Below, one piece after another: positions 3,800 to 57,917 of a stretch of DNA of 64,000 bases. The notes beneath the pieces were generated by a model. It made no database searches. It was not told the origin of the DNA and saw only the letters and a program-made list of their open reading frames with translations. Made by a program: the position numbers and the translations under genes. Positions within the stretch are counted from its first letter, which is position 1. Each line of letters opens with the position of its first letter. The stretch lies in assembly GCF_053078305.1 (NCBI RefSeq), contig NZ_CP166879.1; one strand, given 5' to 3'.

Positions 3800-3945
3800 T
3801 GTTTGCCGGATGTGATGACGCATCTTAGCCTGCCTGCAAAGAGTACTTTTCCTGTGGGCCGGATAAGGCGTTCACGCCGCATCCGGCGGCGGTGCCCTAA
3901 TGCCTGATGCGACGCTAAACGCGTCTTATCAGGCCAACAAACGAC
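3800..3945. repeat. REP/BIME palindromic units in cbpM-torD intergenic region
   Basis: GCCGGATAAGGCGTTCACGCCGCATCCGGC and TGCCTGATGCGACGCTAAACGCGTCTTATCAGGCC type palindromes. Confidence 0.7.
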
Positions 3946-14498: not shown

Positions 14499-14671
14499 GG
14501 TCAGTGCGTATTTGTAGCGCGACGTTATCAAAGGTGATCATCGTCGATTTACAAAAAATACACTTAGCGCCCAAAGGGTTTCGCTCCGTCACATCGAATG
14601 CCGATGTGCGGTACTGTGAACCATGACAACATGGACAGCGAAAATGGAGATGTTGAGTAATAACGGCAACC

Positions 14672-14884
14672 TTAGAGCGTAACTACGTTCGCTGCCGCGG
14701 GGCCACGTTGCCCCTGCTCAATAGAAAATTCAACTTTCTGATTTTCGTTCAGCGTGCGGAATTCATTGCTCTGGATGGCGGTGAAATGGACGAAAACGTC
14801 TTTGCTGCCATCATCAGGAGTGATAAAGCCAAAACCTTTATCTGCGTTAAACCATTTTACTAAACCAGTCATTTTATTAGACAT
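14672..14884 (-). CDS. cspG: cold shock protein CspG
   Basis: 70 aa [34 protein letters not shown]. Confidence 0.95.
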
Positions 14885-15169
14885 ATTTTACTTCCTTCAT
14901 TTTGGGCCTTTCGGCAAACAGGGCTTTAATACAGAAACTACTTAGTGTTCAGGAGAGAGACTCAAAAGAAGGGGATAATGCCTGATAATGAGAACTGCTT
15001 TAGTAAACTACTTTGTATGCTGTCTGTCTTTCAAACCGACGCAGCTATTAACGCATGATAATTGAGATTAAGCAAATTTTATTTTAGCCGTCCGGCGGTC
15101 TTAAATATCGCTGGCTTTATTTTATTAACCCCGTATAGTGCAGCGCAGTATTTTCAGTAAGGAATTTGT

Positions 15170-33859: not shown

Positions 33860-33947
33860 GGAAGTGTGGCCGAGCGGTTGAAGGCACCGGTCTTGAAAAC
33901 CGGCGACCCGAAAGGGTTCCAGAGTTCGAATCTCTGCGCTTCCGCCA
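33860..33947 (+). tRNA. serT: tRNA-Ser (anticodon UGA), serT
   Basis: GGAAGTGTGGCCGAGCGGTTGAAGGCACCGGTCTTGAAAACCGGCGACCCGAAAGGGTTCCAGAGTTCGAATCTCTGCGCTTCCGCCA; long variable arm; CTTGAAA anticodon loop. Confidence 0.93.
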
Positions 33948-34580: not shown

Positions 34581-35252
34581 TTATTCCTGTGCCCAGCCAA
34601 CCCTGTATGCCAGGATCTCATCCGCACTGCTCAGCGATTCCAGGTCCTTCTTCATGGTGCGCTGGCGAATGTGGATTTCCATCCCTTTGGTGAACATCGC
34701 CTGCTCTGCCGCTTCACTCAGCGCAATAAGCTCTTCTGCTGTCACCGGCACATCATTGTTTTCCGCATCCGTCCAGAAAAACGCCTCCGGCAGTTTCCCC
34801 GATTTCGCTGCCGCCACCGACGGCTCAAGACGCGTCTGCGTTGACTTCCCGTAGTCCCATTTACGCCCATTGTGCTCAAACGTGTAGTTCGCCGCTTCCA
34901 TCGCATTACGCCAGGCGTTAATTTCATCGCCCTTCATCCCTCGCGCTTTCTCCGCGGTCAGCAGGTCCGTGATTTTCTCCCCGTCAAAACCCCAGCGCCC
35001 CGAGATGTCAGCTTTGCGGTTTTCTTCCGTATCCGCCACCTCCACCACACTCTGGCCCACTGGCCACAGAACTGATGCCACCCTGCTGATGCCGGTAATG
35101 ACTCCGGCACTGTTATAAACCACCTTCAGCGTCTCTGCTGAAAATAACGACTGACACTCATACCAGTCCTGACCATCCTCTGATTTCAGGTACATCGCAC
35201 CCGGCACATCCGGATTTTCCGGCGTGTATTGTCTGAAATTCTTTATGTGCAT
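34581..35252 (-). CDS. tfa: tail fiber assembly protein (Tfa family)
   Basis: 223 aa immediately downstream of stf; N-terminal VVY..G.I.GISR....SVVEV.D...NRKAD.SG.W.F pattern typical of Tfa/gpG chaperones. Confidence 0.7.
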   Translation of the reverse strand: MHIKNFRQYTPENPDVPGAMYLKSEDGQDWYECQSLFSAETLKVVYNSAGVITGISRVASVLWPVGQSVVEVADTEENRKADISGRWGFDGEKITDLLTAEKARGMKGDEINAWRNAMEAANYTFEHNGRKWDYGKSTQTRLEPSVAAAKSGKLPEAFFWTDAENNDVPVTAEELIALSEAAEQAMFTKGMEIHIRQRTMKKDLESLSSADEILAYRVGWAQE

Positions 35253-35293: not shown

Positions 35294-37012
35294 TTATAAT
35301 GGAAAATACTCAAACCCCGAAGCTCCTGACGACACATACTCACCCACGCTGACTGTACGCCACTGAGAACCATCAAATGTCACCTGAAGCGGCCTGTAAG
35401 AAACCGATATCACACCATCTGCTCCTCTACTTTTCAGACCAGTAATCACAGCTCCTATACTCAGGCTTATTGACAGAAAACCAGAGCTCTCTTCTGCTCT
35501 GTAAGTCTGTTCATTACCCAGCCTGATACCCACAACCCGGCTCTTCCCGTCTGATGCCCCGGGCGGCCCCATCGGCCCGGTTTCTCCACGCTCACCTCTG
35601 GGACCGGGGTCGCCTTTCTCCCCTTTCGGTCCCTGCGCTCCCCGCGGACCAGCGGGGCCTGTTGCTCCCGTTTCACCTTTCGGACCCTGTGCTCCGGGGT
35701 CACCTTTCTCTCCTTTCGGACCGGGAACACCACCTCCTGCTGCAGCCTCTTCTGCCTTTGTTTTCGCTTCATTTGCCACATCCATTGCCGCCTTCACGGC
35801 CTTCGGCGTGGCTGCCTTTGTTTCGTCATTACTGCCAGTATCACTGCTTAACTGCACCACACCTTTCTGCGTCGTGCTGGCATCCCGCTGGCTGACCGTA
35901 TCCGGTTTGTTTTTTGTGCTGTAATCCACCCGCCAGTGGAAATACCGTGTGTCGCCGTAAACCGTACAGGTACAGACCGTGCCATTAATAAACCCCGTTG
36001 CACCGTATTCGCCAATGGTGACCCGGACTATGGCAGCCTCATACGTTCCCATCACCTCAATGACACAGCCACCCAGATTGAGTTTTCCCGGTCCGACATC
36101 CGTGATGACTTTATTCATTGACGCAAGCAGTGATGCCTTCATCATCCAGTAAGGCTGGTCAAATGCCCCTTTTTCTTTCAGCCAGGCAACAAACTCGCGT
36201 GTTTTCCATTCACCGGCCCCCGTATGAATGTCCCGCCCGTATACTCTGGCTGCTCCCACGGTGTTCAGAAACTTCACCTTATCCGGGATATCATCACCGT
36301 TTTTCGCTTTCTCCAGGCATCCGTCCGCTTTGTCCATTGCCGCTTTCACCGCTTTCGGCGTGGCTGCCTTCGTTTCATCATCACTGTCCGTTGCGCTGCT
36401 TAACTGCACAATTCCCTTCTGTGCCGTCGTCGCATCCGGCCCTCCCGGCTCGCCTTTTTCGCCCTTCTCTCCCCGTTCACCTTTCACACCCTGAAGCCCC
36501 TGTGGTCCTGTCTCACCACGCTCACCCTTTGGCCCCCGCTCGCCGGTATCGCCTTTTGGCCCGGGAATACCCTGCGGCCCGGTGTCCCCCTTATCCCCCT
36601 TCGGTCCCCGCGCATTCTCTGCCCGTTTCTTCGCTTCCTCTGCACTCGCCGCTGACGCTTCCGCACGTTTCAGGATTTCCGCTGCCACCGCTTCCAGCTC
36701 TGCAAGGGCTTTCGGGTAATACTGTGCGTCTTCCAGGTCCATCAGAAATTTATTCAGCGTTCCCGGTGCAGAATCCGCCTTCACCAGAATGTCACCCACA
36801 TATGACGGCGCGTACCCTTCCGTGTTCAGCGTCACCCGGTACAACCCCGGCTCAACATCCATACTGTAACTGCCGGTTTCCCCCGGCTGACCATACGCCA
36901 CCGTGGTGACAATCACCATCTCCGTTGTGCGGCGCGCTTTCAGCTCTATCGTGCATCCCGGTACTGGTTTTCCCGTACCATCCTTCAGCACACCCGATAT
37001 TCTGACTGTCAT
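35294..37012 (-). CDS. stf: side tail fiber protein Stf with collagen-like repeats
   Basis: 572 aa; N-terminus [28 protein letters not shown] resembles lambda Stf; two G-X-Y repeat blocks; duplicated KGIVQLSS...[15 protein letters not shown] motif. Confidence 0.88.
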
Positions 37013-37154
37013 GGATTTCCCCCATAAAAAAACCGCAGTACCGGTTTCCCGGCCTGCGGTAAAATTTGTGGTTTGTTGGTGTTAAAACGGTGCCATCCGG
37101 CTGACCACCCTCAGCAACCGGTCGGCGGGGGATATTCTCCCCCGCCACGGTTTC

Positions 37155-37295
37155 TTACTGCTTACACTGTAAGAACGCCGCAATCTCCGCGCCCGCTATC
37201 CGGAACCGGAACTCGCACAGTGAACTGTGGGTGATCCAGATAATGAGCACTACCGTGATACAAATCACGGTGGTTTTTAACGGTTTTTGCGACAT
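37155..37295 (-). CDS. Hok/Gef-family small membrane toxin (46 aa)
   Basis: Hand translation MSQKPLKTTVICITVVLIIWITHSSLCEFRFRIAGAEIAAFLQCKQ; AAGGAG SD 8 nt upstream; TM helix then LCE.R.R..G.EIAAF motif; coordinates approximate. Confidence 0.6.
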   Translation of the reverse strand: MSQKPLKTTVICITVVLIIWITHSSLCEFRFRIAGAEIAAFLQCKQ

Positions 37296-37493
37296 AAACG
37301 CTTGCTCCTTTTACGGAGAGGCGCTAACCTTCAATTTGCTGAAGATCGAAAGTCAGGCCTCGGGTTAAACATGAATGTTTGTCCGGGGCCTTCGTCTTTC
37401 CGGCCTTCAGGTGTTCCCTCCGGCCATCAGCCAAAGGCACCCGCGCATACTGTACGGTTTTTGTCTCCTTCCGGCAATCCCGGGGCGCGATGT

Positions 37494-40400
37494 TCAACTG
37501 ATGCCGATCCCCGCCGTGGATTTTTTCATGACCACAACCAGTAAATCACTGATGTATGTTGTCGGCGTCCAGTGGTTCACCCCGTTCGACCACACATTAA
37601 ACGTCAGGGTCACATGACCCCGTCCTGCTGGCATATCAATGACGGACGAAAACACCCGGGTGACATCCGTTGCCGGCTGATGAAAAATTACCCTTCCGTT
37701 CATCTGCACCTGTAACTGACACGTGGAATACCATGTTGAAGTGTGATCTTTGCTGGACTGGTGCTCATGTCTCGCCCCCCGGAACAGCACCGGTGGAATG
37801 ATAATCTGCCGGTCGAAGCCCTGGTCATCGTAAACCGTGACGGTTATCGTGCCACTGGCATAACTGTTATTCCGGGGAAAGGCTTTCCCCACCGTCTTCA
37901 CCAGATCGCCTTCAATCTGGTTCGCAGACAGTTTCCCTCTGATGACACAGTTCTCGTTAATGGTGACATTATTGAGCGTGCCGCTATTCGCTGTGACAGC
38001 TCCACTGATGTCCGCATTGCGGGCCGTCAGCCTGCCCTCCGGCGTCAGGGAGAACGTCGGGGGATTGCCGGACGAGGTGATGCTCACTGCAAACAGTCGC
38101 TTCAGGAACACATCGTTCATGAACAGCTGATTCCCCTGCGCCACAAACAGCGGCGTGGTGTTGCCGTTCTCCGGGTTAATCATCGCGATACGGTCCGCCT
38201 GCAGCAGAATATTGCTCAGGGGCTGGCCATCAGCATCCTCAATCCCCGCACCTATACCGGCAACATACGGAATGCCGTTTTTCGTTTTCTGCACCTTCAG
38301 CATATACAGCGCAGCCAGGTCGTTATTTGTGTCTGTCTGCACCCGCTGTATCTGCTGTATGGTGGCACTCTGGTCTTCCAGGGTTTTACTGACCGTCTGC
38401 GTGATTTCATTGCGGGTTTCGGTGATGGTGGTCTTCATCTCCGCCATCTCATCGTCAAGCTGGCTGTTATCAATCAGCTCCCACATCCCCTGTGCCAGAT
38501 GTGTCTTCCCGATTTCTCCTCTGAAAAAGTCCAGATACCCTTCCGCATCATTGCTCGCCCGGCCACTGGCTTCCACAAACGCAGATTTCCCCACCAGGTT
38601 GACGCTGCGCACATAAAACCAGAAATCCTTCCCCGGCTTGATGTGCGGGCCGGAGACGCTCCACTGGCTGCCTGTCCCCAGATAACGGGCAGAGGTTTCC
38701 ACCTGAGATGTGTCTGCGATTTTTGCCTCCGAGAACCAGAACTCAAACTGTACCGTCGGGTCATACACCGCCAGCACCGGTACTGCTGTTATCTGATAAT
38801 ACCCCGGCGTCAGCTCAATGCTGGCCGGTGCTGCAGGCGCATTAATCCGGAACGCGGTGGTGGCAGGTTCGCCCTGCTGGCCGTAGCTGTTTATCGCCCT
38901 GACCGTCAGGGTGTATTCCCCCAGAGGCAGGCCACTGAAACGGTGCTCCGTGTCGGCAGTGATGGCGGTGGTCACCAGGCGGCTGTTTTCACCGTTTCCG
39001 CTGGTCAGGCGCAGACTGAAGCGCACGCCCTTCACCACCCGCGGCGTGTCCCATTTCGCCAGCGCCAGATACTGGCCGTCTGAGGCACTCACCTCCACCG
39101 TGAGGTGCTGCACTGCCGGCGGGATAACGCTGTTCAGTGAACCGGACAGCGGCTCAAAGCGAGCCCCGTTATCCACAATGGCTTCTTTTTCCGGTACGTG
39201 CTGCACTGCCGTGATGGCAAAAGTGCCGTCCGTGTTTTCCCGGATGGAAACACAGCGGAACAGGCGACGACGCAGTGACGGCAGGGAGAGTCCCCACACA
39301 CCGTATGTCTCCACGCCATCCGGCAGGGCGCTGACCTGTATCCGGTCCGGCGCGGGGTGTGCAGTGATGTCCACGCGCACCGGCTTACCGCTGCCGTTAA
39401 TCAGGTTCACCGTCGATGTCCCTGCTTCCGGCAGTGTCACCTCACGGTCCAGCGTCAGTGTGCGGCTGGCGGCATCAATGGACAGGATGCGTCCGCCGGT
39501 CAGGGTCCCGGCATAGTCGTTATCACAGATTTCAATGATGTCACCGGGCGTATGCCGCAGCCCCTGTGACCCGAGCGTGAAATCCACCGTCTGCGTTTCC
39601 AGCAGTTCGGTCTTTATCACCCACAGTCCGGCACGGTGGGCCTGACCGCGGCTGGTACAGCCAAACGCATCCATCTTCAGCAGGTTGCGTCCGTAGCGCA
39701 GGATGGCGTCCGGGTCTTCCACCAGTTCCGTGGAGGTCTGCCAGCCGTTCTGCGGGTCGGTGTAATTCACCTCCACCGCCGTGTGCCGGTCCTTCAGGGC
39801 ACTGAAGCTGTAGCGGAACCCCACGCCGTTATCATCCACCACCACATCGCTGTTGGTGTACGGCCACACCACATCCGACGGACGGTCCTGAACGAACGTC
39901 AGCGTCTGGCCGTTCCATACCGGCATACAGCGCATCGCCGAGCAGAAATCCCCCAGGACATCCCACACCTTACGCTGCTGTGACAGGTACGCATTGAAAG
40001 TCATCCGCGGCTCTGTTCCCCCGAAACCATCCGGGACCGTCTGGTCGCAGTACTGCCCGATGGCATACAGTGCCCACTTGTCCACATCCGCGGCCCCCAG
40101 GCGTTTTCCCATGCCGTAGCGCGGGTGGGTCAGCATGTCCCACAGGCACCAGGCCGGGTTATTGCTGTATGCCGGTTTCAGACTCCCGTCCCAGATACCG
40201 CTGTAGGTGCGTTTTTCCGGGTCATAGTTTGACGGCACCTGAATGATGCGACCACGGATATGGTAGTTCACCGTCAGCTGCTGGCCACCAAACTGCTCCG
40301 CATCCACCTGCAGCCCCACAATGGCCGTGTTCGGGTAGCACTGTTTCACATCGATGATTTCGGTGTATGACGACCACAGCGTTCTGTTCTGCAGCTGGTC

Positions 40401-40970
40401 CGTGGTGCTGTCCGCCGTCTCCCTGACCATCCGGATGTTAAAGGGGCGCTCAGGGAGATTATTCAGAATCACAGACGTCAGGTACTGCGAGGTGGTCTTG
40501 CCGTTAATGGTGATATCCTTCTCCGTCACCCAGTGCCCGTTACGCTCAAGCTGAATCAGCAGGCGGACAGAAGAGGGATTACGGTCACCCTTTGAGGTGG
40601 TCTCCACCAGTGACTGCACCCCGAAGGTGACCCGCAGACGGTCAATGTTCGCTGACGTGATGGTGCGCGTCACCGGCTTTGCCTTCGTCACCTCCACGCC
40701 CAGTGCGGTTTCTGCCCCGGAGGACTCAAAGCCTTCCGGCGGTGTCTGCTCCTGCTCCCCGGCGCGCCAGACGGCGGTCACACCGTGTATCACGGGATTA
40801 CCGTCCGTGTCCGTCAGCGGGGTTTTGTTCACCAGAATACTCTGCAGTCCCTTCACCGGACCTTCCACCGGTCCCTCACCAATGGCATCAATCACGCTCA
40901 TCATCTGCGTGGATTTGAGATTGTCCTTCGCCTCACGCGGTGTGTGCCCCTTGCCGCCCCCTTTACCCAC
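37494..40970 (-). CDS. J: tail tip / host specificity protein J
   Basis: About 1158 aa from GTG ([37 protein letters not shown]), collinear with lambda gpJ throughout; track ORF extends 17 codons upstream. Confidence 0.92.
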
Positions 40971-41007
40971 TCTGCCCCCCTCTCCTGTCTGATGTCTGAA
41001 TCTGTTT

Positions 41008-41045
41008 ATGCCCAAAAACAACAGGCACCCCGGAGGGTGCCTGTG
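41008..41045 (-). terminator. intrinsic terminator-like hairpin upstream of J
   Basis: Minus strand CAGGCACCC-TCCG-GGGTGCCTG followed by TTGTTTTTGGG. Confidence 0.5.
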
Positions 41046-57449: not shown

Positions 57450-57917
57450 CTAGTTAATACACTGAGTGCGGATATATTCCTTCGCCCCTTCCAGCTGCTT
57501 CTGCATTGTCATCAACCGTTCTCTGAGGATGAAATAATCCCGTTCAGCGGTGTCTGCCAGTCGGGGGCCGGTTGCATTATCCACGCCGGAGGTGGTGGGG
57601 GCTTCACGCACGGAGCCTGGACAGGTGGCTTTAACCCGCAGGCGCTTACGACCAGCGGCAACATCAGCACGCAGAGTTTCATTTTCAGCTCTCGCATCGG
57701 CTAATTCCCTCGAGTATTTAGCATCGAGCGCAGCAACATCGCGCTGGCGCTGCTGCATATCAGTAATGGTTGCGTTTGCCAGCTCCAGCTCTCTGGCTTT
57801 TTTATCGCGCTGCGCTTTGTAGGTGATGGCGTTATCGCGGTAATGATTCAGCCCCAGACTAAGCGCACCACAGGCCACCAGCAGGACAATAATCACCACA
57901 CACAGAACACGGTTCAT
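57450..57917 (-). CDS. Rz: i-spanin Rz
   Basis: 155 aa [43 protein letters not shown]..., lambda Rz-like. Confidence 0.93.
57512..57697 (-). CDS. Rz1: o-spanin lipoprotein Rz1 (embedded in +1 frame of Rz)
   Basis: 61 aa [25 protein letters not shown]...[27 protein letters not shown]; lipobox and proline-rich region. Confidence 0.88.

Follow-up and report, generated by a model that had tools for sequence, protein, structure and literature searches.

A stretch of DNA 64,000 nucleotides (nt) long, from NCBI RefSeq assembly GCF_053078305.1 (contig NZ_CP166879.1) and referred to here as the window, carries on its minus strand a small toxin gene of the Hok/Gef family, located between the tail tip gene J and the side tail fibre gene (stf) of a prophage. 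Judged from its sequence and predicted RNA folds, the locus is very probably a complete type I toxin-antitoxin (TA) module of the hok/sok type, carried as a moron between J and stf in a lambdoid E. coli prophage beside a tRNA-Ser gene. Homology to characterized systems gives good support to a type I mechanism, in which an antisense RNA would keep a membrane toxin in check. The features of the locus, from the promoter to the terminator of the hok transcript and then on the opposite strand, are listed below in window coordinates.

37449..37477, minus strand: predicted hok promoter, with a −35 box TTGCCG (37477-37472), a 17-nt spacer and a −10 box TACAGT (37454-37449)
37026..37442, minus strand: predicted full-length hok mRNA of ~417 nt, from +1 at G37442 to the U-tract of the terminator
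37284..37442, minus strand: hok mRNA leader (tac, ucb and Sok-target hairpins), matched by the Rfam 'sok' model RF01794
37422..37442, minus strand: tac-like 5′ element, whose partner is fbi in the full-length fold and ucb (37385-37393) once the RNA is truncated
37331..37372, minus strand: 13-codon upstream open reading frame (uORF), MFNPRPDFRSSAN and a stop codon, inside the Sok-target region, with 35 nt between its end and the hok AUG
37315..37323, minus strand: anti-Shine-Dalgarno (anti-SD) segment CGCCUCUCC, which in the full-length and Sok-bound folds pairs with the hok Shine-Dalgarno sequence (SD); in the truncated fold its partner is GAGGCC (37356-37361)
37305..37310, minus strand: hok SD, AAGGAG, 9 nt 5′ of the ATG and invariant among relatives
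37155..37295, minus strand: hok coding sequence (CDS), a Hok/Gef family toxin by Pfam, PHROG and NCBIfam profiles and by RefSeq identity
37124..37146, minus strand: GC-rich hairpin GGCGGGGGAGAAUAUCCCCCGCC just past the stop codon, identified by folding (94% paired, 5 compensatory pairs)
37111..37119, minus strand: segment GCUGAGGGU of the 3′ untranslated region (3′-UTR), base-paired in the full-length fold to the Sok-recognition segment AUCUUCAGC (37338-37346)
37089..37108, minus strand: fbi-like 3′ element, pairing with the first 21 nt of the hok RNA (tac-fbi closure)
37026..37060, minus strand: intrinsic terminator ACCGCAGGCCGG-GAAA-CCGGUACUGCGG followed by U7, identified by folding and kept in the J-hok-stf loci L001-L004
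37302..37330, plus strand: predicted Sok promoter, with a −35 box TTGCTC (37302-37307), a 17-nt spacer and a −10 box TAACCT (37325-37330)
37338..37400, plus strand: predicted Sok antisense RNA of ~63 nt, starting with a single-stranded 5′ tail of ~18 nt, followed by a GC-rich hairpin and then UUCGUCUUUC

The toxin and its two predicted RNAs

The hok reading frame is ATG-initiated and encodes a protein of 46 amino acids (aa), MSQKPLKTTVICITVVLIIWITHSSLCEFRFRIAGAEIAAFLQCKQ. A preliminary description of the locus had proposed a 46-aa open reading frame (ORF) with a good SD, an N-terminal transmembrane (TM) helix and the periplasmic motif of Hok/Gef proteins, and each of these is borne out: the coordinates and the SD agree exactly, the motif is present in the ORF as quoted, and Kyte-Doolittle hydropathy peaks at 2.5 over residues 8–22 and lies below 0.5 from residue 18 onward. 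Such a profile fits a peptide predicted to cross the membrane once, near its N terminus, and to end in a short polar tail. The HMMER comparison against Pfam Hok/Gef that the same description had proposed is significant (HOK_GEF, PF01848, E 2.5e-11; residues 10-44 align with positions 8-42 of the 42-position model), and PHROG 251, named 'MokW-like host killing' and placed in the moron category, is matched over its full length (residues 1-46, E 1.8e-21). NCBIfam Hok-family models give E-values of ~1e-9, with scores of 38 and 37 bits against curated cut-offs of 89 and 73. Since the best-scoring of these, HokA NF007290 (E 1e-9, 38.2 bits), remains far under its equivalog cut-off of 89, the gene is not a HokA orthologue. 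A search of the PDB returned no relative of the protein.

Individual residues point the same way. In a logo of 1264 Hok peptides, C16, T18, L30-C31-E32, E41 and C/Y48 are conserved, which in terms of spacing corresponds to C-x-T and L-C-E followed, counting from the cysteine of LCE, by E at +10 and C at +17 (10.1101/2025.08.07.668861). The window protein has C12, T14, L26-C27-E28, E37 and C44, with spacings the same as those of the logo. According to the same 2026 preprint, 42 of 45 diverse Hok homologues were toxic when tested, and prophages are four-fold enriched in hok genes (10.1101/2025.08.07.668861).

Upstream of the toxin, the leader matches RF01794 on the hok-sense strand with 63.5 bits (gathering score 59, E 2.2e-13) over model positions 1-157 of 157. 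This model is labelled 'sok antitoxin', but in an R1-type control locus (L014, 150-326 +) it covers the hok-sense strand from +1 to the hok AUG with 88.9 bits; it therefore models the hok leader rather than Sok, and a hit marks the hok strand. The control is a locus from a plasmid collection, 100% identical to the sequence used to retrieve it. Both promoters and the hok terminator were located by homology and folding, and the 5′ end of the mRNA was placed at about G37442 from position 1 of RF01794 and the start of the conserved GGGTGCC homology. The predicted hok promoter begins 17 nt after the J stop codon, with its −10 box seven nt upstream of G37442, and both its position and the T-A-x-x-x-T pattern of the −10 box are kept in 13 relatives found by BLAST.

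The hok RNA is predicted to be strongly folded, with a free energy of −167.5 kcal/mol for the 356 nt from 37442 to 37087 (z = −8.75 versus shuffles). Across 14 BLAST-found loci, RNAalifold pairs columns 1-21 with columns 335-364 through wobble or compensatory changes and few broken pairs, and the tac-fbi closure is retained in all 14. When the full-length structure of the window is laid over a wider set of 67 loci, 81% of cells are paired, as against 38–47% in slid controls. In the lineage of loci L019 and L020 an altered tac (CGACUUUCC; CGACU) is matched by an altered fbi (GGUCG). A second long-range helix, between 37346-37338 and 37119-37111, hides exactly the segment that the predicted 5′ tail of Sok would recognize. 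Five of its nine pairs have changed on both sides among the 67 loci, and its two segments, GCUGAGGGU and AUCUUCAGC, are the least conserved of the locus, with 73% column identity each.

Once the 3′ end is removed, the leader refolds into a tac-ucb pairing, a small hairpin and a long GAGGCC...GCGCCUC hairpin, both when folded alone and in the minimum free energy structure of the 3′-truncated RNA. This truncated fold leaves 82% of cells paired over the 67 loci (33–55% in slid controls). By analogy with R1, the hairpin past the stop codon, a conserved structure that could halt an exonuclease, is presumed to form the 3′ end of the processed, truncated mRNA. Structure modelling predicts at the locus both the tac-fbi closure and the alternative tac-ucb fold.

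Opposite the leader lie a candidate Sok-type promoter and a terminator-like hairpin. The −35 box of this promoter overlaps the hok SD, and by position the promoter is the counterpart of TTGCGC-17-TATCCT in the R1-type locus and of TTGCCT-17-TAACCT in hokW-sokW, as judged by manual comparison and matched spacing; a global alignment with the R1-type locus is uninformative (~40% identity). In the BLAST-found set, the block comprising the Sok promoter and the SD is the most conserved part of the locus (95%), ahead of tac (89%) and the CDS (84%). The ends of the putative Sok RNA were set from the spacing to the −10 box (5′) and from the hairpin and U-rich tail (3′). It folds at −25.7 kcal/mol (z = −4.4), and its 5′ tail is complementary to the leader loop that carries a YUNR motif (UUCA, 37343-37340).

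The preliminary description had identified neither a mok-like leader frame nor a Sok RNA. The second half of that statement gives way to the predicted promoter and hairpin RNA at 37302-37400 (+), while the first half stands, in that the mok frame is absent or degenerate. The description had also proposed a search of the upstream region for an antisense promoter and fold-back structures, and both are predicted there, as TTGCTC-17-TAACCT and as the folded RF01794 leader.

Possible regulation at the hok Shine-Dalgarno sequence

Within the window, no leader ORF reaches the hok SD; the leader holds only the 13-codon uORF, and there are stops in all frames. The frame equivalent to R1 mok is interrupted by a TAG lying in the Sok −10 box, and no start codon opens it upstream of hok. 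Most relatives are similar: in 48 of the 76 unique ones, no ORF opened by ATG, GTG or TTG in the leader extends as far as the hok SD. The leader ORFs of the remainder begin at inconsistent positions (+17, +45, +47, +71 and +101), and not one of them shares the reading frame of hok. Applied to the R1-type locus as a positive control, the same ORF analysis does find the 70-codon mok and its GAGG SD. The 13-codon uORF was considered as a mini-mok and rejected as a conserved element: among close relatives its ATG opens ORFs of 10, 13, 20 or 52 codons, and other relatives lack it. Given such inconsistent or missing leader ORFs, mok is not a conserved part of the 46-aa subfamily.

The folds suggest where control might be exerted instead. 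In the full-length structure, the helix between the anti-SD and the hok SD is 89% paired over the 67 loci, and in the truncated fold the alternative helix between the anti-SD and GAGGCC has 5 covarying pairs. For the hok SD of the window, opening is predicted to cost 6.5 kcal/mol when the RNA is full-length, 3.2 after 3′ truncation and 6.6 in the Sok-bound state, which was represented by masking the Sok-complementary segment. The means for the 67 loci are 6.9, 4.3 and 7.0 kcal/mol, respectively, with the pattern present in 63 of them. In contrast, the hok SD of the R1-type control is flat (4.4, 4.3 and 4.4), and it is the mok SD that falls, from 9.6 to 6.3, in agreement with the published mechanism (PMC9841398). 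The mean unpaired probability of the SD shifts only modestly among the three states (0.33, 0.46 and 0.33), and the opening energies are the more informative measure.

These models suggest that a relay through the anti-SD may replace mok. The suggestion draws on thermodynamic prediction, a truncation point chosen by analogy and closely related sequences, and the mok-less, hok-SD-gated regulation of the 46-aa subfamily, the sole aspect of the locus that is possibly new, is accordingly put forward as a tentative hypothesis. If confirmed, it would revise the view of mok coupling as universal in hok regulation, and the 46-aa subfamily would offer a simpler model locus.

Combined with the R1 paradigm, the predicted elements would operate as follows. 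A weak constitutive promoter would give rise to the ~417-nt hok mRNA, in which tac pairs with fbi and the neighbouring 3′-UTR segment pairs with the Sok-recognition segment, two pairings that would leave the full-length RNA closed to both ribosomes and Sok. Slow trimming of the 3′ end back to the post-stop hairpin would remove fbi, upon which the leader would refold, tac with ucb and GAGGCC with GCGCCUC. A short, unstable Sok of ~63 nt, transcribed from TTGCTC-17-TAACCT, would pair with the refolded leader and keep hok untranslated, presumably triggering decay by RNase III. When the supply of Sok ends, the 46-aa Hok, with an N-terminal TM helix ahead of a periplasmic tail that carries Cys27 and Cys44, would enter the inner membrane and collapse the membrane potential. 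Unlike in R1, refolding and Sok binding are predicted to act directly on the hok SD, by way of CGCCUCUCC.

Several observations weigh against this reading of the locus as a complete and active module. The 67-locus set was gathered in part by a motif inside the Sok promoter/SD block, so the invariance of this block in the 67-locus alignment is there by construction and only the 13 BLAST-found loci are independent. The loci are closely related (81% mean column identity), which limits covariation, and the measure of change on both sides is not above shuffles. Both predicted promoters are poor matches to consensus (8 of 12 positions for hok, 6 of 12 for Sok), and a scan for consensus promoters and terminators called neither of them, nor the hok terminator. 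The Rfam match exceeds its threshold by just 4.5 bits, with relatives L005 and L006 falling under it. The truncation point and the ends of Sok were set by analogy, and PADLOC, which catalogues anti-phage defence systems, has no family that matches the Hok protein at E up to 1. Finally, Hok synthesis in R1 requires mok to be translated as far as the hok SD and is abolished by premature mok stops upstream of hok (PMC9841398), so a relative that lacks mok might be poorly translated or inactive.

Setting, distribution and biological role

The immediate neighbours of hok are two tail genes.

37494..41021, minus strand: tail tip gene J, the upstream neighbour (phrog_31 'central tail fiber J', E 0; 'gpJ' in RefSeq relatives)
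35294..37012, minus strand: side tail fibre gene stf, the downstream neighbour (phrog_366, E 2e-118)

The placement of the toxin between J and stf in the preliminary description is therefore correct; in lambda, the J-stf slot is occupied by lom. Relatives of the stf product are named 'prophage tail fiber N-terminal domain-containing protein' in RefSeq, and a gene resembling those for tail fibre assembly comes after stf. The stf protein has two collagen-like Gly-X-Y blocks, at about residues 135-190 and 430-490, and a similar motif beginning 'D(D)' is present in it twice. The hok terminator ends 14 nt before the stf ATG at 37012. The late operon, comprising endolysin, Rz, terminase, tape measure and J, is on the minus strand, as are hok and stf, so hok is co-oriented with, and embedded in, its distal part. 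With a strong U7 terminator inside the late operon, expression of stf from the late promoter would require terminator-resistant (antiterminated) polymerase. No insertion sequence (IS) element or rearrangement is present at the hok locus.

The left 34 kb of the window correspond to the hya/app region of the E. coli chromosome (99.4% identity), and the prophage starts directly after tRNA-Ser(UGA), at 33860-33947 (+), and continues to the end of the window. The tRNA, which is probably the attachment site, is separated by ~630 bp from the last tail gene, whose end is at 34581; it marks the prophage/chromosome junction beside the hya operon. Elsewhere in the prophage, an ORF resembling DNA methyltransferases (57914-58849, minus strand; phrog_67, E 2.6e-70) lies between the endolysin (59342-59875) and Rz spanin (57450-57917) genes, an unusual insertion for a lysis cassette. 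Upstream of the lysis genes is a 655-aa ORF (61799-63766, minus strand) that matches phrog_143 over its full length. The chromosomal part has Rfam matches to the cspA thermoregulator (14618-15040, minus strand; 157.8 bits) and naRNA4 (3857-3935, plus strand; 82.5 bits).

The Hok protein is identical to RefSeq WP_000078852.1, 'Hok/Gef family protein', and the exact sequence occurs on at least 1000 contigs; some sources name the identical protein 'protein HokA'. The 801-bp J-hok-stf junction is covered to at least 80% in 35 of 5426 complete E. coli genomes, all 35 of which annotate the order gpJ / Hok/Gef family protein / prophage tail fiber. The type I toxin identity given in the preliminary description is upheld by this naming and gene order as well as by the Pfam and PHROG matches. 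Among phages, 1720a-02, which derives from an O174:H21 strain, matches the hok locus most closely; it carries J-hok-stf at 95% identity, with the hok gene labelled hypothetical. A literature search for a prophage hok alongside lom and a tail fibre gene found nothing. The gene call itself adds nothing new, the locus being an already known, widespread and annotated prophage hok/sok module. Its value lies rather in being a well-delimited type I TA moron in the J-stf slot, with its RNA parts mapped to coordinates.

A DNA motif scan of IMG/VR, together with additional relative loci, yielded 136 loci of the 46-aa subfamily, of which 93 are after ogr at the end of P2-like prophages, 20 are between J and stf, and 6 are directly after lom in Stx phages. 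An example of the last is Shigella phage 75/02 Stx (L005), with a homologous 46-aa hok at 2686-2826. Some of the ogr-adjacent cassettes are embedded in large plasmids beside IS26 or an integrase gene (L006-L009 and IMG/VR loci), and tandem hok cassettes ~0.5 kb apart occur in L020 (motifs at 404-428 and 898-922) and L013 (558-698 and 1030-1165). The ORF is intact, at 45–48 aa, in nearly all of about 77 unique loci.

Other explanations of the locus differ widely in plausibility. It is exceedingly improbable that this small ORF arose by chance, or that its product is a small membrane protein unrelated to Hok and only superficially like it. The ORF is indeed short and hydrophobic, and its NCBIfam scores are under the curated cut-offs, but the Pfam and PHROG matches, together with an upstream RNA that independently matches the covariance model of the hok leader, effectively refute this idea, and RefSeq labels homologous loci Hok/Gef. 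More serious, though still improbable, is the view that the locus is an inactive relic which, for want of a mok leader ORF, never has its toxin translated. Its counterparts would be the hok loci on the E. coli K-12 chromosome, which are reported to be inactivated. Such a view accords with the missing leader ORF in the window and in 48 of 76 relatives, and with the loss of Hok synthesis that premature mok stops cause in R1 (PMC9841398). Set against it are the nearly universal integrity of the ORF, the preservation of an identical protein on so many contigs, the absence of any IS element or rearrangement, and the consistency of the switch predicted for the hok SD, seen in 63 of 67 loci. Moreover, conservation is higher in non-coding elements (tac and the Sok promoter/SD block) than in the CDS, which speaks for selection acting on the regulation of a live toxin.

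If the module is active, its role is the less certain matter. The preliminary description offered prophage addiction or abortive infection, either of which is speculation, with precedents in R1 hok/sok for plasmid addiction and partial exclusion of T4. Alternatively, hok could be chiefly an accessory of lysis timing, a possible but less likely account: late transcription through J-hok-stf would collide with the Sok promoter, Sok would be lost on induction, and Hok would help to permeabilize the membrane before or together with the holin. The orientation of the genes makes such a helper role plausible, since hok is co-oriented within the late operon and Sok would be transcribed head-on against late transcription, and the terminator right before stf fits a self-contained cassette that only antiterminated polymerase reads through. 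A precedent exists in a different prophage hok, hokW-sokW of Sp5, where sokW RNA is lost upon RecA-dependent induction, HokW precedes endolysin by about 1 h, and deletion of hokW-sokW halves the phage yield (PMC8621323). However, hokW belongs to another hok lineage (41% identity), and it is located outside the tail operon and opposite to its large neighbour, so the precedent is independent of read-through. In addition, with 93 of 136 subfamily members after ogr in P2-like prophages, a late-operon position is not general. Retention of the prophage or defence when host transcription stops would rank about equal to assistance with lysis on induction. A fuller scenario, in which the subfamily dropped mok, coupled both refolding and Sok to the hok SD through a GAGGCC/CGCCUCUCC/AAGGAG relay, and has Hok fire as a lysis helper when induction silences Sok, is a more novel reading and a tentative one.

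Comparison with known systems

The closest relatives of the module are members of its own 46-aa Hok/Gef subfamily (WP_000078852.1, WP_000078916.1; PHROG 251), found in E. coli prophages and plasmids, although copies differ among themselves in the Sok-target segment (73% column identity). Chromosomal HokA of E. coli K-12 (NF007290) is the best NCBIfam match, yet at 38 bits it is far under the cut-off of 89.

Among characterized systems, hokW-sokW of the Stx2 prophage Sp5 (VT2-Sakai) is likewise a prophage type I TA, and its Sok promoter has an identical −10 box (TAACCT) and 17-nt spacer in the same place. Both toxin and antitoxin activities have been shown for it, with HokW residing in the inner membrane, and a mutation in the sokW promoter region abolished antitoxin activity (PMC8621323). 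HokW is, however, a 51-aa protein of another lineage, to which the window Hok is 41% identical over 34 aa. Its gene is sited outside the tail genes and is preceded by an in-frame start codon with a GAGG SD, which gives the 70-aa 'orf74 gef homolog' of VT2-Sakai (L135, ~2500-2830), whereas the window has no such start. The 'MokW-like' 46-aa match in Stx phages was considered as the characterized hokW and rejected, as hokW is a separate 51-aa gene (PMC8621323 and the VT2-Sakai sequence). Stx phages of the 933W/Sakai type carry two distinct hok loci, namely hokW (51 aa) and a 46-aa hok after lom. The latter, which is uncharacterized, belongs to the subfamily of the window gene.

The likeness to hok/sok (parB) of R1 and R1-type IncF plasmids extends to the toxin (39% identity over 33 aa) and to the RNA architecture. 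Both loci match the same Rfam leader model and share the tac-fbi closure, the alternative tac-ucb fold, a GC hairpin after the stop codon, a Sok promoter at the homologous place with 17-nt spacing and overlapping the hok SD, and a Sok of ~63–64 nt (predicted in the window) with a 5′ tail and hairpin. In contrast, blastn against plasmids detects no DNA similarity to R1-type hok, a global alignment gives the ~40% identity noted above, and the toxin has 46 aa in the window and 52 aa in R1. The R1 system is plasmid-borne and the window module is prophage-borne within a late operon. The R1-type locus has a 70-codon mok with a GAGG SD where the window has none, and the predicted switch acts on the mok SD in the former and on the hok SD in the latter.

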